A stretch of 64,000 bases of DNA from Candidatus Omnitrophota bacterium (GTDB lineage: Bacteria > Omnitrophota > Gorgyraeia > Zapsychrales > Fredricksoniimonadaceae). How positions within the stretch are numbered: the first letter of the stretch is position 1; every line of letters starts with the position of its first letter. Made by a program: the position numbers and the translations under genes. The notes beneath the pieces were generated by a model that did not search any database, had not been told where the DNA came from, and saw nothing but the letters and a program-made list of their open reading frames with translations. Below are positions 12,900-56,453 of the stretch, one piece after another. The stretch lies in contig JADFXH010000004.1 in the NCBI GenBank assembly GCA_015233675.1, forward strand, positions 72,492 through 136,491, in the 5' to 3' direction.

Positions 12900-13654
12900 G
12901 GAAGTTGATAGCCATATTTCTTAAAAATTTCACGTGCCCGGGCTGAAAAAAGAAAATCATAAAATTCACGGGCCTCTTTGAAATGATTTTTTAATTTTGC
13001 ATATTTTAGCACAATCACACCCTGGGCAATAGGCCTGTATGCGTGCGGGTCCAATTCAATCCATTTGCCATGCCCCTTGATTTTCGGGGCCAAGACAACC
13101 GACTTAGCTGTAAAGCCGAAATCCGCCGCCCCTGTGGTAACAAATTGATTGACCTGTGAAATACTTTGGCCAAATACTAATTTCGTCTGCAGCGGCGCGT
13201 ACAATTTATAATATTCTAAAACATTAACCGCCTCGCGGCCGTAAGGCGCCAGACGAGGATCAGCTAAAGCAATTTTCCCAACACCAGCATCCTTTAAAAC
13301 ATTGATGCCTTGGGACAGGTCAGAACTTTTCATCGTCCAAAGGACTAAAACTCCATAGGCATATACTTCAGGCGCCTGTTTAGAAAATCCATCTTTATAA
13401 AGCGCGTTGGGATATTTCATATCCGCAGATAAGAATACATCAAACGGCGCTCCATTCTCTACCTGTGCAGCTAATGCCCCGGACGAACCGATGATTGTCT
13501 TGACATCAATTCCGGTTTCCTTGGCAAATGCCGCCTTTAAGTCTTCCAGGATGAATTGCGCGTTTGCCGCACCAGCGACAATGATTTCACCGGCAAAAGC
13601 AGCTATCGGTAACGCTAAAAAAACCGCAACTGCAATAAGAATTATCTTTCTCAT
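12896..13654 (-). CDS. modA: Periplasmic molybdate-binding protein
   Basis: Signal peptide, then GSSGALAAQVENGAPFDVFLSAD, typical of ModA. The ATG at 13654 is preceded by AGAGGTG; the tracked GTG at 13660 is less likely. Confidence 0.85.
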   Translation of the reverse strand: MRKIILIAVAVFLALPIAAFAGEIIVAGAANAQFILEDLKAAFAKETGIDVKTIIGSSGALAAQVENGAPFDVFLSADMKYPNALYKDGFSKQAPEVYAYGVLVLWTMKSSDLSQGINVLKDAGVGKIALADPRLAPYGREAVNVLEYYKLYAPLQTKLVFGQSISQVNQFVTTGAADFGFTAKSVVLAPKIKGHGKWIELDPHAYRPIAQGVIVLKYAKLKNHFKEAREFYDFLFSARAREIFKKYGYQLP

Positions 13655-13677: not shown

Positions 13678-13700
13678 GGTTCTGTCAAAATTCTTGCAGG
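13678..13700. repeat. 23-nt dispersed repeat GGTTCTGTCAAAATTCTTGCAGG (copy 1 of 2)
   Basis: Matches 52667..52689 at 22 of 23 positions. The reverse strand contains TTGACA. Confidence 0.8.
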
Positions 13701-13878
13701 TTATGCATGAGAAGAGATATTATTTGCTCAACGGGATATTTTCGCCGTTGGCGTCGGTTTACAGCAAAAATGTTCTAAAGTCTCTCTTCATTTGGAACAT
13801 TTTTGCTGTAAATCCTAGCCAACTTTTGGCGAAAAATCCCTGAATGTTTCGCAAACAATATCTCTTCTCATGCATAAC
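13700..13878. repeat. Long imperfect inverted repeat (about 76/84-nt arms, 19-nt loop) in the modA/acyltransferase divergent intergenic region
   Basis: The left arm GTTATGCATGAGAAGAGATATT...TTTACAGCAAAAATGTTC (13700-13775) is complementary to the right arm GAACATTTTTGCTGTAAA...AATATCTCTTCTCATGCATAAC (13795-13878), with a few indels in the middle. Confidence 0.85.
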
Positions 13879-14044
13879 TCCCAATCCTTGCGCATTTTTC
13901 ATATAACTTTTGACACTACCTTTTAATGTAAAAAAAACCTTTTTGTCAACCATTGCCAATATATCATGGGATTAAAAATGCTCATACTTAATCCTAAAAA
14001 ATATCGTAACGAAAACGCTTATTTGATATATTATAAACAATTAT

Positions 14045-18626: not shown

Positions 18627-18664
18627 TGCAATGCCCTCCGAATTAATTAGTACAATTTAAAAAA

Positions 18665-19031
18665 GCAGTCAATAAGCCGAGTTCTGTGACCCTTGGCAGG
18701 GCGATGGCCATTCGACTAACATCCGCCTTTGGCGGATATCTTGCAGCCTACCCGAGAGTATGACGGAGCGGATCACCCCGTGTCATGGGTCCCACCTTTC
18801 GATGGAACTTGCGACTCCCCTCCTATTTGGCATTGCTCCATGCAGAGATTGCTCGTTTCACTCTCCCGTGAGGGAGCATCGTCACTGTAGCTCTGATCCT
18901 CGTCTGCCGGGCCAAAATGCTTTCGCGTTTGGCTTCGCAAGACTGTCCCGCGTTATCGGGATGCATCATCCTTTGGAGCTCGGACTTTCCTCTCCGACGC
19001 CATAAGCATCAGAGCGGCCATCCTGACCTGC
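18665..19031 (-). ncRNA. rnpB: RNase P RNA, bacterial type A
   Basis: The minus strand contains GAGGAAAGTCCGAGCTCC (P4 5' strand), GGGTAGGCTGC and ACAGAACTCGGCTTAT (P4 3' strand). The 5' GCAGGTCAGG and 3' TTGACTGC can form P1. About 367 nt; ends estimated from P1 pairing. Confidence 0.85.
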
Positions 19032-19421
19032 TTTTTTTAAAACCTGTCGAACCAGCGCATCAGCCTCTTTATTTTGTTCACGAGGCACATGCGTAATTTG
19101 AAACGACTTAAACCCTGTGACCAAATGCTTAACCTGAACAAAAAGAGGCTTTATATTCTCATGCCTGACGGCATACATGCCGCAAACTTGCCTGCACATC
19201 AATTCGCTGTCAGTTTTAATGCTGACTTCATCCGCTTTTAAAATCAACGCTTCCTGTAATGCAACAATCAACCCTGTATATTCCGCGATATTATTGGTCC
19301 CTTGGCCGATGGACATGGCCATGGTTTTGACGGTTTTCGCCCCGTTTTTAATAACCACTCCGATGGCCGCAGGTCCCGGATTCCCCAAACAGCCGCCGTC
19401 GGTAAAAATCTCCAATTTCAT
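18966..19421 (-). CDS. rnhA: Ribonuclease HI-type protein (RNase H fold); its last ~22 codons run into rnpB
   Basis: Blocks FTDGGCLGNPGPAA, NNIAEYTGLI, SIKTDSEL and NKEADAL place the DEDD residues. The C-terminal tail AGQDGRSDAYGVGEESPSSKG is encoded by the 5' part of rnpB. Confidence 0.8.
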   Translation of the reverse strand: MKLEIFTDGGCLGNPGPAAIGVVIKNGAKTVKTMAMSIGQGTNNIAEYTGLIVALQEALILKADEVSIKTDSELMCRQVCGMYAVRHENIKPLFVQVKHLVTGFKSFQITHVPREQNKEADALVRQVLKKAGQDGRSDAYGVGEESPSSKG

Positions 19422-20502: not shown

Positions 20503-23500
20503 TTAACTGGCCGCAGGAACTCTTTCTTGAACATTTAACCCAAGGAACTGCCTAAGATCCATCATCGGCTGGATATTGATGATTACCGGCACAAAGCCGG
20601 GGGCATTTTGCAGCTGCCGGAGCATGGCGGGGTCAAGGTGGAATTTGATTTCACCGCCGTTATTTTGTGTCTGCAAATTCATATTAGCCGCGGTCAAATC
20701 AATACCTCCTTTTTCAATCTTTAACATTGCCGAATCTTTTTTTGGTGTGATCGTTCCAGATAACTTAGACAAAATAAAAAATGAGGCCCATTTCATCATT
20801 TGCGAAAACTCATCATCATGTGTCCATCCGTTAAACCCCTCATCTTGCCGGGTCACAATTTTTTCTACTTTACTGCCGGACTGTTTTGCGATCTGCAATA
20901 GATGTCCAAGTTCATGAACGATAGTTTCAACCTTTTGAGAAAAGCCGCCTGCTGATGAAACTCCTTCCGCCAATGATTGATTAAGTAAAAAACGATTGTC
21001 CGAGAATAATCCCCTAAATGGAGCGTCACTTTTAGCCAACAAAACATCATCAATTCCAAAAATCTTCCCAAATTCTAATCCTATTTGTAAAAGCTGTTTC
21101 TCTGAATCCGTTTCAGGCGAAATAATCCAATCGTCAATCGGTGTAATATCAATGATTTTTAATGTTTCAGCCATGACCTCCCGTTGAATGGCGTGCTCAT
21201 CGGACATACTGTTTGCGTTCTCCATAGATCGACCGGTCGCAGCTGCCAAAGCGCTCGCAAGCCTCGGGGATACCTGCATCAATGTCTTTATTCTGCGTAA
21301 AACCAGGCTCCCCCTTTCCTTTACCCCTTTCTCATTATTAAAATCAACTTCCAGCAAAGCTAAAAACTGTTTTATCGAATTCTTTTGCAGTCCTGAAACC
21401 TCACCGTCAAACCAAGCCCGTAACGTCTCCAGTTCTTTGTTACTAACACTGGCAACCTGCGGTTGATCAAGTTCATTGTTAATACCATTAACAATATCAA
21501 ACATATGACGGCCATCTACAAAAAGAGGGTTACGGTTTTTATTAAATGCGGCATTGTAGGAAGACTTGCTTTCGAAATCTGATGATATAATCCTGTCTAT
21601 CGTAAAACTTTCATCTGAAAGATGTTTACTCATCATCGCGCGGTATATGCCCAACGCTATATACTTTTGGATAAAAGGCAAATATTCCTCTTCCTGTGCA
21701 AAACCGTTACGGCTTTCATATAGCGCCAATGGGATCTGGATGGCAATCCCCATTTTATCAACAATGCGCCGTATCCTCTGCGGAACCAGTGCTAAAAATT
21801 TCTCTTTTAAAGCAATATCTTCAACCCGTAATCCTTTTTTATCAATGATCTGGGAAGGTATTTCAGGATCATGATGTTCCCATATCCGAAAAACACCATG
21901 CTCAATCAAAACATCGTGAGCGGCATCCGGAGAAGATAAATTGGGAGCATAAAAAGCCCCTTGAAAAAGGACATCTTTGCCGGTAACCCTGACCGGCCTG
22001 ACCTGATTGTTGATCTCAAGTTCAAGTTCATCCTGATCCGTTACTGCAAATCCAGCGTTAATTTTCCAGGCTGACTCAGCGAACATTTGCTCAAGCTCAG
22101 GGATAATCGTACTTGCCTTCTTATTCCTGCGGATCATGAATCCGGTCTGTTCTTCGGCATTTCTATCCCGCCAGCCCAATTTTATCAACTTGGGCCTGCC
22201 TTGTGTGCGGTCAACCTCAACAACAAAAGAATAGACCCTTCGCTCTCCTCGAGAGACAATCTCTACGCTATCAACTCCGGCATATTGAGTAAACTTGCCT
22301 GTCCCAAAAAAACCTGCCAGCATACCCATCAGGCCTTTTTGGCCTGTATTTAAATCGTACTTATTTGATTTTCTGATCAAAAGAGCTAACTCCTGCCCAT
22401 TCGGAGCGCCGGAGCCATTGTCTTGGGCTTCTTCTACAAATTCCTTTTCTACCGGGTCAAAATAAAACTTAACCCGCATATTCCCTTTTCGTTTTGGATT
22501 TTTCTGCCTCGCTAAAACCATGGCATCCAAATAATTCTGTGCAAGTTCAGCCGCATAACCGCCTGATTCCCGCAAACCTTCTATTTTTGACCTTATATTC
22601 TGACGAATTCTCTCAACAGCCTCTCCATTCAAACTTGCTATACGGTCATGCTCTAAGGAGATGTCTTCAACCGACCGAACGCCGTTTTCAGCAGAGGAAT
22701 TCCATACATCCAGCTGGTCCAGCCAGATGCCCTCCCCGATGTTTTGCCATTCAATCTCCTGATCTTCCGTCTTAACATCCTCAGCCACCAAATCTGTCTT
22801 AGTAGTCAAAAATACCAGCAAACTGCCAAGTCTACCCAAACTCTGAAAATCATCTTTTGCAACCGCCTTTTCAATAACTTTCCAAGCTGTACCTTTAAAC
22901 GTGTCGAAAATCAATTCTAAATAATGCTCAGATGCCTCGCTGTTCATAATTCTGTTTACCTGATTGATCAAATTGTTTTTTGCAGAAACCTCTTTATTCC
23001 TTAACGTCAATTGAATTGAGCAAACAATTTTTGACAACAGAGGGTAGTCCTTCATATTTTTGGACTTAAACGATTCAATAAGCTGATAGACCGCTTTTGC
23101 TGATTCAATTGACGCAGGGCTGTCTAAAGACCAGCCGTAAGCCATTATTTTGATAATATCATTGATATCTTCCCTCGTATTGATTCCATCAACAACGGCC
23201 GCCTGTAAAAGTGTTTTAAAGAAACGATGGTAAAAATCCTCCCTCTCATGAGACTGCAAGGAAAGAATATTTTCTTCAAAAAATTCAGGCCAAAAATCTT
23301 TCAACCCTTTGTCAATTTCATGAAGCGTCTTGGCTACATCATCGACTAAAGCATCAATGGAGGAGAGCTGACTTTCAGCTGAAGTTTTACCTTCAATCAC
23401 CTGTTCCATCCTTTGCCTTAGCAGGCCATAAAAGAAATTAAATGAATCCTCATAATCTGACCGGTTTATTTGAAGAGTATCTTCGGGAACAAACTTGATA

Positions 23501-26500
23501 AGCTCTTCATATGCCGTTGAGAGCTTTTGACGCCACTCGTTTGATTTTTCAGAACTTACATTTAATCTTATCTGGAATTCTTTTGTTTGAGGTTTCAAAA
23601 AATTCCATATTTTAGCTGTGGTATCACGGCTTGCCGTTAAAATTCGGCCGTCAGTCAGAATTTGAACTGATTCAATATCAGATGAATGCCCTACAAGGGT
23701 CGCATCAACCTGCCACTCTCTTGGGCTTGTCTCCCTCCATATTTTCGATGAACCATCAGAACTTGTCGTTAAAATCCGGCCATCGGAGAGAACTTTGGCT
23801 GCACGCCCTTCAAGCGTTGCTTCTATCTGCCATTTTCCGTTTATCTCACTTACTATCCTGACTTGGATGCCATTTTTATCTTCCATCAAAATTCGGCCAT
23901 CAGGCAGTATTTGACCTGAATACCCATCAATAATCGCTTCTACCTGCCATTCTCCCGGGCTTAACTGCCTCGAAATCATCACTTCGCTGCCATCATAACT
24001 TGCTGTCAGAATCCGGCCATCAGGAAGCATCTGAGTTGGCTGTCTAAAACCTAAACGGCCTTCAAGTTTCGCCATAGCCTCCCATTTCCCCGGGATCACC
24101 TCACTCCATATTTTCACTTGGCCGCCATCAGAATTTGCCGTCAGAATGCGGCCATCGGGCTGCATTTGGGCTTTAATCCCTTCTAGGACCGCATCTATTT
24201 CCGCATCTATTTTCCATGCCCGATCCATTTTTATCCATATCATCATTTTGCCCTGAAAACTTGTCAAAATTCGGCCATCAGACAACGCTTGGGCTGAAAC
24301 CCCGTCAAGGGTCGATTCTACCTGCCACTCTCCCGGGTTTGCCTCATGCAATATTTTCGTTTTGCCAAGAAGATCCGACATCATAATTCGGCCATCGGGC
24401 AATATTTGGGCGCCATTCCCTTCAATGCGCGCTTCCAACTGCCATTCTCCTGTTTTCTCTTCTCTCCATATTCTAGTTTTGCCATCAAGACTTGATGTCA
24501 TAATCCGGCCATTAGAGAACATTTGGGCTGACTCTACCCAAACCGGACATTTAAGGGTGGCCTCCACTTTGGGTTTTGGCTCGCCCAAATTAGTCTCATT
24601 TCGTAATAAACCCAAATTAAAACTAAGCTCTCTTAACCCGTTAGCTTCCTGAAGTACAAGCGCGTCCCTTTTGATAACACCATCCTCGACACCAAAAGGC
24701 ATAGCCAGAGACCAGAATTTCTCAATCTCACGGCCATTGACTCTCAATAAAACATAACGTGTTTTCTTTCCGGTATACCTATAAAGTATATTGGTGTTGT
24801 CTCGGGCCACGAGGGTACATCTCTTTTCTTTTTCAAAATCAGCCAGTGTATAACTTCTTATATGCTCTTCAAAAGCTATCTTTTTTGGTAAGGCACTCAT
24901 GGCTGAATCCCAAATTTTAGCAGGTTCTGTTGAAGAAGAAATCCTTCCTTCCCCTCCTAATGAGTCTAAATAATCTCCTAAATCCTTAGGTAAAGTATTA
25001 TTTAATTCCAATTTCCCTAACTTACGAAATTTATATGCAACATCCTCAGCAACTATTGGCACATCTTTGAGAATATACTCCTTAACATTAATATCCTTAT
25101 AGAAATTGCCTAATTTGGCCCTCTCTCCATCGAAATTATACTTCGGATTCATCTCTTGCGGCCCGTAAGGTTTTGTCGTTACATAACTCTTTTCATCATT
25201 CCATTCCAGGAAATCCTCCTCTGCCTTCCAATTCGTTTTCACCTTTTCTTTATCTGAAGGTTCTTCTTTAACACCAAAAGCTGCATACGCTGCGGCCTCC
25301 AATTTTACTAAATCATAACTATTGGCAGTATCCTCTTCCGCAATGATCTTTATAAGCTCCAACTTCTCTTCTTTTTTCTTGTCATCTTCAGAAAGCGTAA
25401 CGATTAAATCCCCAATCTGAGACGGGACTATTACATAGCCGTCTCCCCGTACTACCGGCAAAGGTTGTGTTTTAATTATGCGCATAATATCCTCAAAATT
25501 CCGAGCCTGATATTGCTGCCAGACTTGCGGCCTAAAGGGGACTGTCAAAATCAAATTCCTTATTTTATTGCCGGAATCTTTGTCTGTTGCTTCAAGGACC
25601 ATCGGTAACACCGAAGCCCCCAAATATTCTTTTAGTTGTTTAATTTCAGCCCCTCTCCAATCAAACAAACCCTCATTTAAGAAAACAACACTTTGCCCTT
25701 GCGGCATTTGGAAATTATCAAAACCATCTCGCAATGGCAAAATAATCGCCCCTTCCTTTCGAAGATTGCTGATGAAAGATGTCATCTCTGTTTTTACAGC
25801 ATTTTTAACTTCATTAATAATATCTGTTACTGCTTTGTTCCCGGGAGCTATCCCTTCAAGCCCGCCAATCAAAGTATTGATAATTTTAACTTTTTCTTCA
25901 TTTGAATAATCATTGTGAAGTACGAGTCTAACAAGGCTCAAAACACCCTTCTTTAAGGGCTCTTCATCCTGATTTCTCTGCAAAACGATCTTGTCCCAGG
26001 AAGGAGAAACTCTAATCAGCCTTCCCAAATCAACCATCAGCTCTCCCGCCAGAATTGACGTCTTTATTACCGGATGCAAAGTAACACGTGACATGACCCT
26101 TCCATTTCTGGCAAAAATTATCGATGGCCCCATCCCTTGGGGGTCATGCACAAGGCTTGTTTTTTGTGTTTCAGCATCAATCTCCTCGGGGGTTGTCATG
26201 ACTTTGTTTTCCTTATCTCCCCCATCGACAGGTAAAAGCATCCGCGACATAATCTGTAAATCCATTCCCTTCCCAGGATCGATAACTCTAAGAATCCTTG
26301 GCTCTAAAGACACCACAATCACCGGTTCATTCTGTCTGCTTTTAGGCTCCGGAGCATTTTCATGTTTAAGATTGGCAAGACCTGCTAAAACTTTCTTATG
26401 TTCCCAGCCATTCACAAGCCTAAATTCAGAAAAGCCAAATCGAGTCCAAATTCTGGGACCTTTAACAGGAGAAAACGCATCATGAATTTCCTGCTCCAAT

Positions 26501-28410
26501 CTTTTTAAAGTTACTCCCTCTCCGTCTTGCGGGATATCCTTGCTTTTAAACACAGCGATGACCGTGCCTTGCTGTGAAAAAAGGCCTCCTGTCGCCTTTT
26601 GGAATTCTTCTTTGGTGGATTGAAATATGGCCGCCTTAAAGCCGCCTTCCTGACGGATAATGACAAGACAATACGGAGGCTTTCCCTTTTGCCTCGAAAA
26701 AACCTCTATTCTTTCTTCTGGGTTCTCCAGCCACGCAAGAATCTGTTTAACGCCCATGCCAAATTGGCCCATTTCTCCTCCGAGAGCATCAATACTGTTG
26801 GCCACCGCTTCAAGGATCGATTCAATCTTTGAGCTCCCGCTTTGATAACCAACGGTCCTGTCTAAAGCCACGTCCGGCTGGGCATCTCCTTTTATTTTTT
26901 TAATGATCTGTTCAGAATATCCAACCTGAGCTAAATGATCATAAACCCGCGTGTAATATTCATCTAAATTTTGGGTCCCCAAGCGCTCGCCTGCCTTAAG
27001 AATTCCCAGAGAAGATAAAAGCTCCTCCAGTTCAACTCTCGATAAACTCTTCAATCGTTTTTGCGCCTGTAAAAATGGAACCAAATTGAAATAGATGACA
27101 TTTTGCGGCACAGGGACCGATTCAAAGGAAACTTTAGGAGATTGGTGATTACGATTGGTATCTTGCGCTTGCTTCCCAAAACCTTTAATGGTACTGATAA
27201 TTTCTAAAGCCCGATTCTTTAAATTTGACATATCCAGCAACATGGCACGGTCCGCCACCGTCTGTATTCTCAAATAAGACGACATAGAAAAATCGAGATT
27301 CATCCCCCCGGAAAAATATTTTCGCGGAATAGTTTCCCGGGATAAAGTGTCAGTGTCTTCTTTAATATAATTGAACACGCCTCTTTTGAAGGCTTGAAGG
27401 TAACGCAGGTAAATTGTTTCGACATTGAGTGGGAAGGAATTTTCGTACCCAACTCCTGCCACTTTATTTTTATCTGCATACACCTGGGCCAGGATACTGT
27501 CCTTGATTTTCTTTTTGTACCAAGTAGCCAAAATCAATGAATTGTAAACTTGACGGAGTTTAGCAAAATTTTTGTCTTCGTTGACTTCCTTGGTCAATTC
27601 AGGGAGGACTATTTCCCGGACAATTTGAGCGCCTAAAGCGTTGATATCCTTGTTGATTGGCAAACGGTTTGTTCCCTGGGATGCTTTCAATTGCAACCCT
27701 CCATTGGTTGGCATTTGGTGCTTCTCAAGCGAAAGATAATCCTGCTCAAGCATGACTTTTAACTTCGATTCAACCACGTATGCCGTCCCTGCCTTGGCAT
27801 TCTCATAAACAACAGCCTTGTCAGGAATGATCCAAACTTTATTAAATGTGTTGACCGAAATATTGGTATTGCCGTACTTCTTGGCCGCCTGCTCATACAC
27901 CCGCCTCCAAAATCTTTTACCTACTTTATCTTCCGGATAAATTAAACTGGCTGTTATCTGCTTGAGCATATAATCTTCTGCTAAGAGATCTCTACCCATT
28001 TCCGTTAAGCCAAAACTATTAGGGATAATCCTGTCTTTCTCATAAGGAGAAAGGTTAACCCATAAATCTTTTTCCGGAATGGTAAGGCTGGCTAAAAAAT
28101 ATTTGATTAATCGGGTGGCTTCGGTTCGTAATTCTTGGTCGTCGTTGGGTTTGTTCTTCTGGGTTGCTTTCTCATTCAATGGTTCATTGGTTGGCGTATC
28201 CCCTCTGTCCAAAATAAAATCAAAACGGAAAGGGTTGTCGGTATGAAATTTAATGCCTTTTAAAATAGGAGGATCAAGCGGCGGACTTAAATGGACCATT
28301 ACCCCGGGCGCAGGCAGACGATATTCCTGGGCCTGAGCCATAGGCAGCGGCCCAAATGTATTTAACAAAAAAGCTGTCAAAATAGCTATATGAAGACATG
28401 GGGCTCTCAT
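20503..28410 (-). CDS. Giant (about 2,635-aa) signal-peptide-bearing mosaic protein: conserved N-module, degenerate GHKL-like module, WD40-like 8-blade array, canonical GHKL/Hsp90-like ATPase motifs, HExxH motif, conserved C-module
   Basis: Uninterrupted 7.9-kb ORF. The tracked start at 28425 is GTG; the ATG at 28410 gives MRAPCLHIAILTAFLLNTFGPLPMAQA|QE, a textbook Sec signal. Neither start has an SD. Motifs are located in the findings. Confidence 0.85.
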   Translation of the reverse strand: MRAPCLHIAILTAFLLNTFGPLPMAQAQEYRLPAPGVMVHLSPPLDPPILKGIKFHTDNPFRFDFILDRGDTPTNEPLNEKATQKNKPNDDQELRTEATRLIKYFLASLTIPEKDLWVNLSPYEKDRIIPNSFGLTEMGRDLLAEDYMLKQITASLIYPEDKVGKRFWRRVYEQAAKKYGNTNISVNTFNKVWIIPDKAVVYENAKAGTAYVVESKLKVMLEQDYLSLEKHQMPTNGGLQLKASQGTNRLPINKDINALGAQIVREIVLPELTKEVNEDKNFAKLRQVYNSLILATWYKKKIKDSILAQVYADKNKVAGVGYENSFPLNVETIYLRYLQAFKRGVFNYIKEDTDTLSRETIPRKYFSGGMNLDFSMSSYLRIQTVADRAMLLDMSNLKNRALEIISTIKGFGKQAQDTNRNHQSPKVSFESVPVPQNVIYFNLVPFLQAQKRLKSLSRVELEELLSSLGILKAGERLGTQNLDEYYTRVYDHLAQVGYSEQIIKKIKGDAQPDVALDRTVGYQSGSSKIESILEAVANSIDALGGEMGQFGMGVKQILAWLENPEERIEVFSRQKGKPPYCLVIIRQEGGFKAAIFQSTKEEFQKATGGLFSQQGTVIAVFKSKDIPQDGEGVTLKRLEQEIHDAFSPVKGPRIWTRFGFSEFRLVNGWEHKKVLAGLANLKHENAPEPKSRQNEPVIVVSLEPRILRVIDPGKGMDLQIMSRMLLPVDGGDKENKVMTTPEEIDAETQKTSLVHDPQGMGPSIIFARNGRVMSRVTLHPVIKTSILAGELMVDLGRLIRVSPSWDKIVLQRNQDEEPLKKGVLSLVRLVLHNDYSNEEKVKIINTLIGGLEGIAPGNKAVTDIINEVKNAVKTEMTSFISNLRKEGAIILPLRDGFDNFQMPQGQSVVFLNEGLFDWRGAEIKQLKEYLGASVLPMVLEATDKDSGNKIRNLILTVPFRPQVWQQYQARNFEDIMRIIKTQPLPVVRGDGYVIVPSQIGDLIVTLSEDDKKKEEKLELIKIIAEEDTANSYDLVKLEAAAYAAFGVKEEPSDKEKVKTNWKAEEDFLEWNDEKSYVTTKPYGPQEMNPKYNFDGERAKLGNFYKDINVKEYILKDVPIVAEDVAYKFRKLGKLELNNTLPKDLGDYLDSLGGEGRISSSTEPAKIWDSAMSALPKKIAFEEHIRSYTLADFEKEKRCTLVARDNTNILYRYTGKKTRYVLLRVNGREIEKFWSLAMPFGVEDGVIKRDALVLQEANGLRELSFNLGLLRNETNLGEPKPKVEATLKCPVWVESAQMFSNGRIMTSSLDGKTRIWREEKTGEWQLEARIEGNGAQILPDGRIMMSDLLGKTKILHEANPGEWQVESTLDGVSAQALSDGRILTSFQGKMMIWIKMDRAWKIDAEIDAVLEGIKAQMQPDGRILTANSDGGQVKIWSEVIPGKWEAMAKLEGRLGFRQPTQMLPDGRILTASYDGSEVMISRQLSPGEWQVEAIIDGYSGQILPDGRILMEDKNGIQVRIVSEINGKWQIEATLEGRAAKVLSDGRILTTSSDGSSKIWRETSPREWQVDATLVGHSSDIESVQILTDGRILTASRDTTAKIWNFLKPQTKEFQIRLNVSSEKSNEWRQKLSTAYEELIKFVPEDTLQINRSDYEDSFNFFYGLLRQRMEQVIEGKTSAESQLSSIDALVDDVAKTLHEIDKGLKDFWPEFFEENILSLQSHEREDFYHRFFKTLLQAAVVDGINTREDINDIIKIMAYGWSLDSPASIESAKAVYQLIESFKSKNMKDYPLLSKIVCSIQLTLRNKEVSAKNNLINQVNRIMNSEASEHYLELIFDTFKGTAWKVIEKAVAKDDFQSLGRLGSLLVFLTTKTDLVAEDVKTEDQEIEWQNIGEGIWLDQLDVWNSSAENGVRSVEDISLEHDRIASLNGEAVERIRQNIRSKIEGLRESGGYAAELAQNYLDAMVLARQKNPKRKGNMRVKFYFDPVEKEFVEEAQDNGSGAPNGQELALLIRKSNKYDLNTGQKGLMGMLAGFFGTGKFTQYAGVDSVEIVSRGERRVYSFVVEVDRTQGRPKLIKLGWRDRNAEEQTGFMIRRNKKASTIIPELEQMFAESAWKINAGFAVTDQDELELEINNQVRPVRVTGKDVLFQGAFYAPNLSSPDAAHDVLIEHGVFRIWEHHDPEIPSQIIDKKGLRVEDIALKEKFLALVPQRIRRIVDKMGIAIQIPLALYESRNGFAQEEEYLPFIQKYIALGIYRAMMSKHLSDESFTIDRIISSDFESKSSYNAAFNKNRNPLFVDGRHMFDIVNGINNELDQPQVASVSNKELETLRAWFDGEVSGLQKNSIKQFLALLEVDFNNEKGVKERGSLVLRRIKTLMQVSPRLASALAAATGRSMENANSMSDEHAIQREVMAETLKIIDITPIDDWIISPETDSEKQLLQIGLEFGKIFGIDDVLLAKSDAPFRGLFSDNRFLLNQSLAEGVSSAGGFSQKVETIVHELGHLLQIAKQSGSKVEKIVTRQDEGFNGWTHDDEFSQMMKWASFFILSKLSGTITPKKDSAMLKIEKGGIDLTAANMNLQTQNNGGEIKFHLDPAMLRQLQNAPGFVPVIINIQPMMDLRQFLGLNVQERVPAAS
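23599..24537 (-). repeat. Intragenic array of eight ~39-aa WD40-like units inside the giant ORF
   Basis: Eight protein-level repeats of (Q)xLxDGRILTxSxDGxxKIWxxxxPGEWQxEAxLxG. The DNA core AT(T/C)CGGCCATC recurs every 115-130 nt. Confidence 0.8.
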
Positions 28411-28543
28411 ATTACAAGTATGCACTATATATAATCTAAAAACAATGGGGACAGAGCGTTTTTGAGAAAGCGCTTCCTGAGATATTTCCGTCGATACGAA
28501 AAAATAAAGGTGATGGAATAATTTTTAATTGCCGGACTTGTCC

Positions 28544-28954
28544 TTAAGAGGAAATATCTCTGGGTAGGTTTGAATATTGATCTAAATCGCCATTGCCGTT
28601 GTCTTTATCCTTCTGCTTATCCATTTGGTTTTGCATGCCTCTCCAAAGGCTTAATTGGTCCGGCTTGAGATATTGAGACAATTCCTGGGTTTCTGCTGCT
28701 TGCAATCCCTGCCTTTGACTGTCAATGGAGCTCTGGTTAATGGATCCATCCTCGATACTTTTTTGGAGATCATAAAACGCCACCGTGTATTTTTCAATGA
28801 TCGGAGTAATATTAGTTACCTGGTCATCCTGTAAATCCAAATCCGTCTTCATTTTTACAATGATATCATTAGAGCTTAGCTGAGCCTGGGCAAAAACAGG
28901 CGTTGCCGCAATGGTCAAGACTATCAGAAATCCATAAATCGCTTTTGTTCTCAT
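28544..28954 (-). CDS. Small secreted LTxxQ-like (Spy/CpxP-superfamily-like) protein, paralog of 39625..40017
   Basis: The ATG at 28954 has AAGGAG 10 nt upstream. Signal peptide ...PVFAQA. Aligns with the 130-aa protein at 39625 through VFAQ, DI, L.L..DQV, PIIEKY, SI.SQ, E.QELSQ.L..DQL..W and MQ. Confidence 0.7.
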   Translation of the reverse strand: MRTKAIYGFLIVLTIAATPVFAQAQLSSNDIIVKMKTDLDLQDDQVTNITPIIEKYTVAFYDLQKSIEDGSINQSSIDSQRQGLQAAETQELSQYLKPDQLSLWRGMQNQMDKQKDKDNGNGDLDQYSNLPRDISS

Positions 28955-29013
28955 ATTGTATTTTCTCCTTACCTCTAAGCTCATTTATACTAATACGCAC
29001 ACCCTACCGGGCG

Positions 29014-51817: not shown

Positions 51818-51831
51818 AGAGAATCGACGAG

Positions 51832-51906
51832 GTCATCCTGAGCCTGAAGGGCGAAGGATCTTAAAATGTCTTAAGATTCTTCGTCGCTATCGCTCCTCAG
51901 AATGAC
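51832..51906. repeat. Inverted pair of the GTCATYCTGAG...CGAAGRATC repeat, forming a ~32-bp-arm hairpin
   Basis: GTCATCCTGAGCCTGAAGGGCGAAGGATCTTAA-AATGTC-TTAAGATTCTTCGTCGCTATCGCTCCTCAGAATGAC, lying between the pilin-1 stop and the ABC ATPase start. Confidence 0.8.
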
Positions 51907-51996: not shown

Positions 51997-52437
51997 CTAA
52001 CAACCCGAGCCATTGGTAACACACACATTTCCTGAACCTACTGTAACTACTCCAGTGCTAGAAATCGTAAAAGATGACAAGTTCGTGCCCGTACCAACGG
52101 AGGCGAAAGCATAATACGCCCCATTCGTCAGCTCATCGTACTCTGTGGTGGAAGTGGCGCCGAACGGATCATAGAGACTGTTGATAATAGCTGCCGGCGT
52201 TGCGCTATTAAAATAAGTAGCACATGGCGATGTAGAACTGGGGATATACACATGCGGGGTGACAGCATTATTGTAATAGGACTCCATCGCGGCCTGCAGT
52301 GTTTGCAGCTCTCCCTTGACCTTCACAATATTACCCGAGTCTTGCATACCCTTCATACGCGGAATAGCAATTGCAATAAGGATGATCAACACCGAGATAA
52401 CTATTACCAACTCAATAATCGTAAACCCTTTTTTCAT
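51997..52437 (-). CDS. Prepilin/pseudopilin paralog 1 (class III signal peptide)
   Basis: MKKG|FTIIELVIVISVLIILIAIAIP has the prepilin-peptidase site and E+5. 146 aa, Ser/Thr-rich C-half, C-terminal CVTNGSGC. GGAAGGAG SD. Confidence 0.88.
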   Translation of the reverse strand: MKKGFTIIELVIVISVLIILIAIAIPRMKGMQDSGNIVKVKGELQTLQAAMESYYNNAVTPHVYIPSSTSPCATYFNSATPAAIINSLYDPFGATSTTEYDELTNGAYYAFASVGTGTNLSSFTISSTGVVTVGSGNVCVTNGSGC

Positions 52438-52445
52438 TTTTTACT

Positions 52446-52666
52446 CCTTCCATATAATTCCATTAAGTTTTCCCATTGATTAGGTCGGGCCAACCGCCCT
52501 TCCATATAATTCCATTAAGTTTTCCCATTGATTAGGTCGGGCCAACCGCCCTTCCATATAGTTCCACTAAGTTTTCCCATTGATTAGGTCGGGCCAACGC
52601 CCTTCCATATAATTCCATTAAGTTTTCCCATTGATTAGGTCGGGCCAACGCCCTTCCATATAATTC
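52446..52666. repeat. Tandem array of 4.3 units of 52/51 bp in the pilin-2/pilin-1 intergenic region
   Basis: Units at 52446-52497, 52498-52549, 52550-52600 and 52601-52651, with a partial unit at 52652-52666. Plus-strand unit: CCTTCCATATAATTCCATTAAGTTTTCCCATTGATTAGGTCGGGCCAAC(C)GC. The units abut directly with no spacers. Confidence 0.95.
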
Positions 52667-52689
52667 GGTTCTGTCAAAATTCTTACAGG
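52667..52689. repeat. 23-nt dispersed repeat GGTTCTGTCAAAATTCTTACAGG (copy 2 of 2)
   Basis: Directly abuts the distal end of the tandem array. Matches 13678..13700 with one mismatch. Confidence 0.8.
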
Positions 52690-52703
52690 CTGATCCGTCG
52701 CAA

Positions 52704-53144
52704 CTAACAACCCGTACCATTAGTTACACAAACATTTCCGGCTCCTATTGTAACAACTCCGGTACTGGAAATAGTAAACGAAGACAAATTAGCAGCTGTT
52801 CCAACGGATGCGAAAGCATAATACGCACCATTCGTAAGCTCATCGTACTCTGTGGTGGAGTTGACGGCGAACGGGTCATAAAGAGGGGTGATCACAGCTG
52901 CCGGCGTTGTGCTATCAAAATAAGTAGCACAAGGAGAAGTCGAGCTAGGGATATACACATGCGGGGTGGCTGCGTTATTGTAATAGGACTCCATCGCGGC
53001 CTGCAGTGTTTGTAGCTCTCCCTTGACCTTCACAATTTTGCCCGAGTCCTGCATGCCCTTCATACGAGGTATAGCAATTCCAATAAGGATGATCAGCACT
53101 GAGATAACTATCACCAACTCAATAATCGTGAACCCTTTTTTCAT
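52704..53144 (-). CDS. Prepilin/pseudopilin paralog 2
   Basis: The ATG at 53144 gives the same 146-aa length. About 90% identical to paralog 1 at protein level by eye, with an identical MKKGFTIIELVIVISVLIILI N-terminus. Confidence 0.88.
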   Translation of the reverse strand: MKKGFTIIELVIVISVLIILIGIAIPRMKGMQDSGKIVKVKGELQTLQAAMESYYNNAATPHVYIPSSTSPCATYFDSTTPAAVITPLYDPFAVNSTTEYDELTNGAYYAFASVGTAANLSSFTISSTGVVTIGAGNVCVTNGTGC

Positions 53145-53652: not shown

Positions 53653-54180
53653 TTACGTCGTTAATACCACAAAACTTATTTGCGAGTGGACCTGGGAGGC
53701 ATCACTCTGATCACCTGACAGACGAATGCCCCCTATATCTAAAACAGCGCCGGACATATGCCTCAGCGTTGTTAAAAAATTGCCCAAATCCCTGAAAGAA
53801 CCGGACGCTTCTACAGAGAAGTCTTTCCGGAGATAAACACTGCTATTTTCATTATTCTTATCTGCTGTTAAGGAATCGCTGATCTTGATTGTTAAATTGT
53901 TTTTTTCAGCGATCTTTTGGATCTCATCCAATAAGTCATCAACCTTGTCTCCTGGAATTATTTGCACGCTTGTAAATTTGTCTTTTTTGGATATTAAATC
54001 TTTAAAAAAAACCAAACTCGCCGCATCCTTCCCCTTTTGGATCTCAGCTTGTTTTATCCTGTGAACAAGAGATAAAAATAAGAACGCATCCAAAATAAGG
54101 ACCGTCACAAAAAACGCTAAAGCAATCCATTTGACTGTTCTTATATCATTAATATCAAACTTTGTGAGATCCAGTTTCAT
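53653..54180 (-). CDS. PilO/GspM-like bitopic protein; start uncertain (alternative ATG at 54234)
   Basis: Short basic N-terminus, one TM helix (WIALAFFVTVLILDAFLFLSLV), a coiled-coil segment, then an alpha/beta C-domain. Positioned immediately after the PilM-PilN gene. Confidence 0.45.
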   Translation of the reverse strand: MKLDLTKFDINDIRTVKWIALAFFVTVLILDAFLFLSLVHRIKQAEIQKGKDAASLVFFKDLISKKDKFTSVQIIPGDKVDDLLDEIQKIAEKNNLTIKISDSLTADKNNENSSVYLRKDFSVEASGSFRDLGNFLTTLRHMSGAVLDIGGIRLSGDQSDASQVHSQISFVVLTT

Positions 54181-55825
54181 CCTCTGCCGCCTCGATTTTA
54201 AAAATTGATCTATTTTTATCTTTCGGGTCCTCATCTATTGATATTTTATAACCGCGACCGGAAATACGCTCGAGTTCAACAACAAAAGGTTTTAATATTC
54301 TCTTGGAATCCCTGGACTGCGCCGAAACAATTCCGGACAAAGCAAACTTCCCGTCAGTCAGAGACAGGTCAGATAAATATACATCCTGCGGCAAATAACT
54401 TAATTCTCCAAGTACGCCCCCTATATCCAAACGATGATAAGAAACATGTCGTATCAAAAGCTTGTTCTTAATATCAGATATATGCGGCATCAACGTCTTG
54501 TATTCGGATTCTAATTTTACGGACTCCTGCTGGATTCCATTCAACCGCAGCAGCAATAATAAATAAAAGAAAACTGAAAGAAGAACCAATACCCCTGAGG
54601 ATGCTCCCATGATAAGCTTCTGAGCAAATTTCTTCCTAAAATCTCTAAGGCCTTCAGGCAATAAATTAATTCCTTGCGGATCAGCCAAAGATGCCCCTAT
54701 CGCCGAAGTTAATTTATGTTTGTCTTTCAGGTCATCTAACATTCCTTCATAAAGGAATTCAGCATATACTAAAGGATCCCCTATTTGCACCGGTATCCCT
54801 AATTCAGCATTTAGAAATTCCGGCAGCCTTTTTAACATTGTCCCGCTTCCCCAAAGCACTAATTTGTCAAGCTTACCGATCGCATGTTGATCATAATACA
54901 AATCAAATGCTCTGGTAATTTCTTTAACTAACAGTTCAAGCTTGGGGCGAAGCAGGGAAATGGCCTGATTAGCTGTAATCTTCCCCTCTATCAAAAACTC
55001 CTCACCGGATGAAGGGATGCCAAATTCCCTCTTTACAGCTTCCGCTTCCTGAAAAGTCAACTCTACCTTACCCCTAATGGTAGACAAAGCGCTGGTCAAG
55101 CATCTGGTAAAATCATTTCCGGTCACATTGATTTTACGTGAAAATTCCAAATGCCCATCCCGATAAACATTAAGTTCAGCAAACATTGAACCCATTTCAA
55201 GAGTTACAATAGTTTCCTTAATTTTTAATTTCGATTTTTTAATAATATTTTCTAAGGCAATCGACATGGGGATAACCTTAGTCAGATTAAGCTCCAGCCG
55301 TTTATTCTGTCCTGAGGGTTTAAAATAAGAAAGAAGACTGTCTATGGCGCTTTTGGCTACAACCGCCACCATCACACTAATTCTTTCTGCACTCTTAACA
55401 GAGGCAGGGCCGGCGACTTGAAAATCAAATAAGGGGGTCTGAATGGAAAAACGCTGGGCATTGTTTACTTCGATTTTAATCGCCTCCAAAATCTCTGAAT
55501 CAGGCATCGGAGGCATCGTGAGATAATCAACAATTGTATTTTGGTTGGAAACCGTACAAACGACATCCGCGTTGGTGGTATCAAAATCAGCTAATGCACC
55601 TTTAAGAGCGTCTCTAGTAACGCCTTCCCGTTCCTTTTCCTCCACCACCCCGATATTTTTGGAAACAGCTTTAATGATCGTTGGTTTACCTTGATAAAAA
55701 GCCGCCTGCGCTACATTCACAGAGCTAAAACCTATATCAATCCCGATCACTGTCTTGCCGCGGGCTAACGATTTTTGCAATTCCAGTATTTGCGGAATAA
55801 GGGCAGCCTTGTCCATTATATGCAT
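54155..55825 (-). CDS. PilM-PilN fusion protein (GspL-like architecture)
   Basis: N-terminal actin-like PilM blocks (VIGIDIGFSSVNVA, ...LWGSGTML). At about residue 395 comes the PilN signature GINLLPE followed by a TM helix and a periplasmic domain. Candidate starts are ATG 55825, ATG 55816 and TTG 55834. Confidence 0.75.
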   Translation of the reverse strand: MHIMDKAALIPQILELQKSLARGKTVIGIDIGFSSVNVAQAAFYQGKPTIIKAVSKNIGVVEEKEREGVTRDALKGALADFDTTNADVVCTVSNQNTIVDYLTMPPMPDSEILEAIKIEVNNAQRFSIQTPLFDFQVAGPASVKSAERISVMVAVVAKSAIDSLLSYFKPSGQNKRLELNLTKVIPMSIALENIIKKSKLKIKETIVTLEMGSMFAELNVYRDGHLEFSRKINVTGNDFTRCLTSALSTIRGKVELTFQEAEAVKREFGIPSSGEEFLIEGKITANQAISLLRPKLELLVKEITRAFDLYYDQHAIGKLDKLVLWGSGTMLKRLPEFLNAELGIPVQIGDPLVYAEFLYEGMLDDLKDKHKLTSAIGASLADPQGINLLPEGLRDFRKKFAQKLIMGASSGVLVLLSVFFYLLLLLRLNGIQQESVKLESEYKTLMPHISDIKNKLLIRHVSYHRLDIGGVLGELSYLPQDVYLSDLSLTDGKFALSGIVSAQSRDSKRILKPFVVELERISGRGYKISIDEDPKDKNRSIFKIEAAEDETGSHKV

Positions 55826-56012
55826 CCCGATCAATTGAAGTTAAAGTCGTAGCAGCTGATATTATCGTTGATAAAACTTGGGAACCCTTAAATTAATAAT
55901 CGCGCCTTATAATAGTTCCATGCATGCCCGGAATGAAGGCCGCCCAGAAATCCAGCGCTTCAAAAATAAGGAAATCCCCGTTATGCTCTCAAAATCAAGC
56001 TTATGCTCGCTA

Positions 56013-56453
56013 CTAACAACCCGAACCATTAGTAACACAAATATTCCCGGTAGCTACGGTAACAACACCAGTACTGCTAATAGTAAACGTAGATAAATCC
56101 GTACCCGTACCAACGGATGCGAAAGCATAATATGAACCATTAGTCAGTTCATCGTATTCCGTGGTTGAGGTGGCGGCAAACGGGTCATACATAGCACTGG
56201 TAATGATTTGCGGCGTTGCGCTAACAAAATAAACAGCGCTTGGTTTAGTGGAGCTGGGACTATATAAATGCGGGGTGACTGCATTGTTATAATAGGACTC
56301 TATCGCCGCTTGTAGAGTTTGTAATTCGCCCTTGGCCTTCACAATATTACCAGCCTGCTGCATACCTTTCATGCGCGGTATGGCAATTCCAATAAGTATG
56401 ATCAACACTGATATAACTATAACCAATTCAATAATAGTGAACCCTTTTTTCAT
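56013..56453 (-). CDS. Prepilin/pseudopilin paralog 3
   Basis: 146 aa with the same class III leader. More diverged in the middle (KPSAVYFVSATPQIITSAMY). Retains the C-terminal CVTNGSGC but lacks the third Cys of paralogs 1 and 2. Confidence 0.88.
   Translation of the reverse strand: MKKGFTIIELVIVISVLIILIGIAIPRMKGMQQAGNIVKAKGELQTLQAAIESYYNNAVTPHLYSPSSTKPSAVYFVSATPQIITSAMYDPFAATSTTEYDELTNGSYYAFASVGTGTDLSTFTISSTGVVTVATGNICVTNGSGC

Follow-up and report, generated by a model that had tools for sequence, protein, structure and literature searches.

A 52-nt tandem array ahead of a pilin gene in an Omnitrophota pilus operon, possibly a young minisatellite that tunes pilin output

Introduction

Classical contingency repeats have units of 1–9 nt, and units of 52 nt slip far less often. 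Among repeat tracts in the 5′ UTRs of adhesin genes that set expression level, the AGAT tract in the leader of uspA2 in M. catarrhalis is a further example beside the hmw1A tract of H. influenzae. In hmw1A, heptamer repeats (ATCTTTC)n in the 5′ UTR set HMW1A expression (PMC12721329). Tracts of the hmw1A type have units of 4–7 nt in 10–30 copies with documented polymorphism, and the hmw leader forms a long hairpin that is cleaved by RNase III. Intergenic modules of ~45–50 nt that can be reiterated in tandem are known from pneumococcal BOX (tandem boxB) and from REP/MITE elements, which are present in many dispersed copies and form stable hairpins. CsrA/RsmA leaders and the RNAs CsrB, RsmY and RsmZ carry many GGA/A(N)GGA motifs, one of them overlapping the Shine–Dalgarno (SD) sequence; in these systems the GGA sit in hairpin loops, the repeats are diverged and the RNA is conserved across species. 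MIRU-VNTR loci have tandem units of ~50–80 nt between two co-oriented genes of one operon. For the MIRUs of the senX3–regX3 intercistronic region an influence on expression has been suggested (PMC7884335). MIRUs belong to a dispersed family that occupies tens of loci in a genome; they contain short ORFs that run into the start and stop codons on either side.

The array described here lies in the 266-nt spacer from pilin-2 to pilin-1, all on the − strand, within a window of 64 kb (the whole stretch of DNA that was analysed). Like the hmw1A-type tracts, it consists of tandem direct repeats between promoter and start codon of an adhesin or appendage gene, in a leader that is probably transcribed, with a unit number that slippage could change in principle; unlike them, it has 52-nt units in 4 copies, and no stable structure is predicted for its leader. 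Units of 51/52 nt in 4.3 copies place it outside the phase-variable simple-sequence repeats (units of 1–9 nt, many copies) and within the range of VNTR/MIRU-like arrays, that is, units of ~40–100 nt between co-oriented genes of one operon. With MIRU-VNTR loci it shares this setting and unit size, and the effect proposed for those loci, on the stability of the mRNA and on how the next cistron is translated, with a variable copy number, would have a parallel here; the unit is not dispersed as MIRUs are, being found at one locus within the 64 kb, and an upstream ORF (uORF) that ends in ATGA has no SD and may be due to chance. BOX, REP and MITE elements resemble the array in being intergenic and tandemly reiterable and differ from its single-locus, non-folding unit. 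In contrast to CsrA/RsmA systems, the copies of the array share 97% identity, lack structure and are restricted to a single genome.

Results

Structure of the array

The tandem array that had been proposed in the initial annotation, 52 bp in period with 4.3 units, is real: TRF reported it at 52446-52666 with a period of 52, 4.3 copies, 97% matches, 0% indels and a score of 414, and no other array in the window has a period above 14. An nhmmer profile built from the four units matched the array with E values of 5e-19 to 1e-18. The parts of the array are as follows.

52446..52666, − strand: whole array, 4.3 copies of a 51/52-nt unit that reads GCG(G)TTGGCCCGACCTAATCAATGGGAAAACTTAATGGAATTATATGGAAGG on the coding strand (TRF, nhmmer)
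52652..52666, − strand: distal partial unit GAATTATATGGAAGG, 15 nt, identical to the last 15 nt of each unit (unit dissection)
52601..52651, − strand: unit U1, 51 nt, one G missing (GCG-TTGG) (dissection, nhmmer)
52550..52600, − strand: unit U2, 51 nt, the same G missing as in U1 and two substitutions (TTAGTGGAACTATATGG), one ATGGA changed to GTGGA
52498..52549, − strand: unit U3, 52 nt (dissection, nhmmer)
52446..52497, − strand: unit U4, 52 nt, exactly equal to U3, its last 6 nt (GGAAGG) forming the 5′ part of the pilin-1 SD
52444..52451, − strand: pilin-1 SD GGAAGGAG, with AAGGAG common to the SDs of pilin-2 and pilin-3

Read on the − strand, the spacer thus runs from the pilin-2 stop over 14 nt, a 23-mer, the 15-nt partial unit GAATTATATGGAAGG, four units and AGTAAAAA to the ATG. 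Unit dissection showed that the unit sequence had been given correctly and that the array does adjoin the pilin-1 SD. Both TRF and dissection found the units adjoining head to tail, as had been stated when a CRISPR array was discounted, and this candidate was rejected here as well (direct repeats without spacers). That the SD itself is part of the repeat was about three-quarters right: the last unit contributes GGAAGG to GGAAGGAG, and the flank contributes AG. At its end the repeated 51/52-nt block has GAATTATATGGAAGG and, within it, the 5′ half of the SD.

On the coding strand the 266-nt spacer contains 15 GGA, 8 ATGGA, 4 GGGA and 10 A.GGA motifs, the last A.GGA overlapping the SD; 13 of the GGA lie in the array, which agrees with the earlier count of about 13. 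Two ATGGA per unit, as previously described, are present except in one unit, where one of the two sites is GTGGA. WATGGRA motifs occur three times per unit, 11–13 nt apart. With each unit, 51–52 nt, one decoy SD-like GGAAGG and three AUGs come to lie between upstream signals and the true SD.

Pilin genes and pilus operon

All genes around the array have the − orientation; they make up a type IV pilus/T2SS-like operon, with the array between its last two genes. In transcription order the operon begins with genes for a TPR protein, a secretin, a receiver-only response regulator and a GspE/PilB-type ATPase with an MshEN domain, and continues with GspF/PilC, pilin-3, a PilM–PilN fusion, PilO, a PilP-like protein, pilin-2, the array and pilin-1. 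The receiver-only response regulator, which has no DNA-binding domain, is the sole regulator in the operon. The 3′ side of pilin-1 is occupied by an imperfect long hairpin and then by the gene of an unrelated ABC ATPase. Intergenic gaps in the window are mostly below 100 nt, i.e. genes are tightly packed. The pilin genes and the hairpin are as follows.

51997..52437, − strand: pilin-1, 146 aa, prepilin N-terminal methylation motif (Pfam N_methyl)
52704..53144, − strand: pilin-2, 146 aa, 89% amino acid identity to pilin-1
56013..56453, − strand: pilin-3, 146 aa, 84% amino acid identity to pilin-1, situated after GspF as in relatives
51818..51906, − strand: imperfect long hairpin derived from a dispersed element, shortly past pilin-1, z = −2.4

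Pilin-1 is 100% identical to a protein of an Omnitrophota MAG at NCBI (P0001). Amino acid identity among the three pilins is 84–89%, and the pilin genes that flank the array are 84% identical over 300 nt. At the DNA level, paralogy of the pilin cassette extends from the SD AAGGAG to ~7 nt past the stop; because it starts at this SD, the unit boundary falls within the duplicated SD. The N-termini and the Cys-containing C-terminal ends of the three 146-aa pilins are conserved and the differences lie mostly in the middle, a pattern compatible with gene conversion or antigenic diversification.

PilM and PilN are apparently fused in one 559-aa ORF (54155-55834) in which a PilM_2 domain precedes a C-terminal part with transmembrane and coiled character, and the same arrangement is found in a relative (L010, 527 aa). 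The hairpin downstream of pilin-1 derives from a dispersed element of ~50 nt (AGAGAATCGACG..CATCCTGAG..GAAGGATCTTAA) that was seen at 51818-51906 and at 1230-1281 in opposite orientations; at the former site the element pairs with a GTCATTCTGAGG arm to give the imperfect long hairpin, at which the transcript of the pilus operon probably ends.

Two further observations were made elsewhere in the window. A giant ORF of 2640 aa (20503-28425) has internal repeats of ~117–135 nt (repeat families D3 and D7) and lies just downstream of a 146-aa ORF (28544-28984) without Pfam match. The RNase P RNA gene (18657-19035) is overlapped at its 5′ end, over ~70 nt and on the same strand, by an RNase H-like ORF (RVT_3/RNase_H, 18966-19421).

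The 23-mer at the distal end of the array

A dispersed 23-nt repeat had been said to cap the array and to recur at 13678, and both sites were confirmed, with one mismatch between the copies.

52667..52689, − strand: 23-mer CCTGTAAGAATTTTGACAGAACC, caps the array, 23 nt from the pilin-1 ATG once the array is collapsed
13678..13700, − strand: second 23-mer copy CCTGCAAGAATTTTGACAGAACC, separated by 23 nt from the downstream ATG of a gene for a ModA-like solute-binding protein (13654)

These are the two sites of the 23-mer GGTTCTGTCAAAATTCTTRCAGG, and its 18-nt core is present twice against 0.07 expected. The 23-mer contains a perfect TTGACA, without a −10 hexamer at the right distance, and TGnAAGAAT, in which 'n' is the sole base that varies between the copies; its candidate roles are those of a weak extended −10 promoter, an operator and a 5′-UTR element. 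It was not found in the related loci described below and had zero matches in viral contigs. As an observation in its own right, the 23-mer CCTGYAAGAATTTTGACAGAACC is common to two unrelated genes and stands exactly 23 nt before the ATG in both, counting the array as collapsed and with two loci to compare.

The second copy abuts a near-perfect nested hairpin of ~180 nt (13697-13882; two pairs of 33-nt arms, −109 kcal/mol, z = −13.8) in the divergent intergenic region between the genes for the ModA-like binding protein and an LpxL-like acyltransferase. No Rfam family was matched by this hairpin, merely sub-threshold miRNA-hairpin noise, and it may be a MITE-like element.

Search for the unit in related loci and collections

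Related loci were gathered via GspF, via pilin homologues and by a scan of metagenomes with a pilin alignment. GspF gave one GTDB match, in an Omnitrophota MAG (62% identity, 2.4-kb contig); the best hit of the metagenome scan was 52% identical, and the nearest pilin relative was 71% identical. The possibility that the unit occurs elsewhere was not borne out in the window, in 95 related loci or in the collections: no further copies were found in the 64 kb by mismatch search, blastn-short or nhmmer and none by nhmmer in the 95 loci (0.5 Mb), and an exact 22-mer of the unit had zero matches in genome and metagenome contig collections. A comparable array was likewise missing from the 95 loci, where the top TRF score was 142, and comparison of the spacer with plasmids and phages by blastn gave no match.

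In the closest syntenic relative, L010, gene order is shared from the secretin to PilP and a single pilin follows GspF; after its PilP-like gene there is neither a tandem pilin pair nor an array. Since the unit has no matches elsewhere and L010 has neither feature, the pilin-2/pilin-1 pair and the array thus appear to be recent inventions of this lineage. A different arrangement was noticed in peat and bog metagenome contigs (L002–L009), where the pilus operon of a relative has decayed: a GspF fragment of 99 aa, a single pilin with 69% identity to pilin-1 and a PilM in split form stand beside cytochrome bd oxidase genes. This arrangement is kept in at least 8 independent assemblies.

RNA structure and coding potential

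Folding of the leader RNA was no better than that of shuffles (z = +0.74), and neither was that of a single unit (−7 kcal/mol, z = +0.82), so that no stable leader structure is predicted; the fold leaves SD and AUG open. In the MFE and centroid folds the three GGA of a unit fall in different places: a stem or internal loop, a position across a weak G–U stem, and a single-stranded stretch. Rfam 15 had no match in the array, either at the gathering threshold or at E <= 5. A scan for terminators between pilin-2 and pilin-1 found none, and a reading as terminator or attenuator was rejected (no stem plus T-run).

Other candidates were rejected by their form: a palindromic REP/BOX/MITE element (unit z = +0.8, no dispersed copies), a G-quadruplex as at Neisseria pilE (by inspection, GGG runs 20–27 nt apart) and a coding repeat (52-nt units shift the frame, and a 62-aa ORF at 52532-52720 begins inside pilin-2). 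The array holds many small uORFs, all without SD. Two of these, of 9 and 23 codons (MELYGRSKK; MEGRLARPNQWENLMELYGRSKK), are located in the last unit (52435-52505); the TGA stop of a uORF overlaps the pilin-1 ATG (ATGA), which is a translational-coupling geometry without an SD before the uORFs. The ATGA ending may be due to chance.

Promoter scans

The scan for sigma-70 promoters, with −35 and −10 hexamers 16–18 nt apart, found none on the coding strand within the array, and tandem sigma-70 promoters were rejected on this basis; the scan was meaningful in that canonical TTGACA-N17-TATAAT and TGGTATAAT promoters were plain upstream of other genes in the window. Sigma-54 promoters have the consensus YTGGCACGrNNNTTGCW. 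In every unit TTGGCCCGA agrees with the −24 box YTGGCACGr at 8/9 positions, but AATCA stands in place of the −12 element TTGCW, with its hallmark GC missing, and a sigma-54 promoter was rejected. Neither an RpoN box nor a GAFTGA enhancer-binding protein nor a sigma-54 consensus promoter was found in the 64-kb window.

Discussion

Origin of the array and copy-number tuning

The reading preferred here, with a probability of roughly 45%, is that the array is a young, lineage-specific minisatellite that arose by tandem duplication of the VNTR type, and that its copy number may tune the output of pilin-1 against that of pilin-2. Its history can be traced in the units: since U3 equals U4, U1 and U2 share the 1-nt deletion, and U2 has two substitutions, the indel/SNP pattern 51, 51*, 52, 52 suggests at least three duplication events of different ages. 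With the array collapsed, the reconstructed ancestral leader of pilin-1 reads 23-mer, GAATTATATGGAAGG, AGTAAAAA, ATG and shares its 23 + 23 nt geometry with the leader of the unrelated gene at 13654 (two loci); because of this match with the second 23-mer locus, the ancestral leader was presumably short. The likely seed of the array is the 15-nt direct repeat GAATTATATGGAAGG, between copies of which slippage or unequal exchange would have made the units, and the same process at the 15-nt repeats would keep adding or removing units.

With neither a terminator in the pilin-2/pilin-1 spacer nor a promoter within its own length, the array is probably transcribed together with pilin-1 as a leader or spacer, either by read-through from pilin-2 or from a start near the 23-mer. 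The transcript would then contain an unstructured, purine-rich leader or intercistronic spacer. An alteration of pilin-1 expression by gain or loss of units is plausible in this setting. The most likely outcome would be that pilin-1 output is tuned by copy number relative to that of pilin-2, and the array would then resemble the rheostats or contingency loci that adhesin genes are known to have; the effect of copy number on pilin-1 could be small.

Neutral duplication

Ranked just below copy-number tuning, and almost as likely, is a neutral and transient duplication: the array would be a by-product of a duplication-prone pilin region, would have no effect on expression and would later be lost by deletion. 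Taken by itself this account is possible and somewhat doubtful. It agrees well with the very young age of the array (97% identity, U3 equal to U4) and its confinement to one lineage, with the lack of a structure, a promoter, a terminator and a known RNA family, and with a motif content per unit that is merely mildly unusual. It sits less easily with a 221-nt insert that has lasted through two substitutions and an indel, which is somewhat unexpected in so tightly packed a window, and with the position of this insert directly on the SD of a probably highly expressed gene, where length matters in other systems. The evidence fits a tuning role and a neutral, transient duplication alike.

Binding of a CsrA/RsmA-type regulator

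The wealth of GGA motifs had led to the proposal of a leader bound by CsrA/RsmA-type regulators. In this account the spacer would be a multi-site leader for such a protein, or another GGA-binding protein, which represses translation of pilin-1, or a built-in sponge. The 15 GGA and 10 A.GGA in the 266-nt leader, the last of them overlapping the SD, speak for it, as does the rarity of two or more ATGGA in a 52-nt window (0.5% of such windows on this strand), and two-thirds of the motifs per unit are predicted to be single-stranded. The count of 13 in the array is swollen by duplication, however, being three per unit multiplied by copy number, and 6% of 52-nt windows on this strand have at least three GGA and 4% at least two A.GGA. 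The motifs also lie outside hairpin loops in a leader with z = +0.74, and no Rfam family was matched, so the proposal found no support. The sponges known so far are diverged, imperfect repeats, in contrast to the 97%-identical tandem copies here; known CsrA sponges are old as well as diverged and are conserved among relatives. The unit is absent from relatives, and the element therefore cannot be an established regulon feature.

A csrA gene was also looked for. No CsrA-like ORF (PF02599) was found in the 64-kb window or in the 0.5 Mb of related loci. A CsrA consensus query returned 7830 matches; the 120 matches listed, mostly unnamed or gammaproteobacterial and without Omnitrophota, say nothing about the phylum, and a search of the literature on CsrA in Omnitrophota found nothing relevant. 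Action through a CsrA/RsmA-type or other GGA-binding protein is considered very improbable. The more specific version, in which the array is a recent cis-regulatory module, an unstructured leader with 8–13 phased (A)UGGA sites where a CsrA-like or other regulator binds and copy number sets the repression of the pilin, is given an equally small chance; if true, pilin paralogues in an uncultured nanobacterial phylum would be switched by a heritable signal encoded in copy number.

DNA-level action and assembly artefact

Very improbable is an action at the level of DNA, either through protein sites phased every 52 bp (~5 helical turns) or through tandem sigma-70 or sigma-54 promoters. The 52-bp period would put sites on one helical face, three WATGGRA recur in each unit at distances of 11–13 nt, the −24 box is matched in 8 of 9 positions by TTGGCCCGA in each unit, and pilin genes are sigma-54-dependent in several phyla. 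Against this stand the −12 element (AATCA, GC missing), the lack in the window of an RpoN box, a GAFTGA enhancer-binding protein and a sigma-54 consensus promoter, the lack of a sigma-70-like site on the coding strand of the array when canonical promoters are easily seen elsewhere, a sole operon regulator that lacks a DNA-binding domain, and a unit without an inverted repeat.

The least probable account is an assembly artefact in which a short-read assembler looped through the repeat or mis-joined near-identical pilin paralogues: the source is a MAG, the flanks are 84% identical over 300 nt and hence error-prone, and tandem copy number from short reads is unreliable, but the units differ from one another, and the consistent order of their two indel classes and two substitutions would not come from a de Bruijn loop. 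The array also has clean, unique junctions on both sides, in a contig of 216 kb.

Implications for Omnitrophota

As it stands, the array is an ordinary though unusually clean intergenic minisatellite in the leader of a surface-appendage gene, and its main practical value is that of a VNTR strain marker for this population. Members of the Omnitrophota, an uncultured phylum, are believed to need pili to attach or to live in association with a host. If unit number varies and sets the output of pilin-1, the array would be the first example of a contingency-type switch in Omnitrophota, and would also show that a duplicated leader segment carrying about half an SD can become a tunable expression element.
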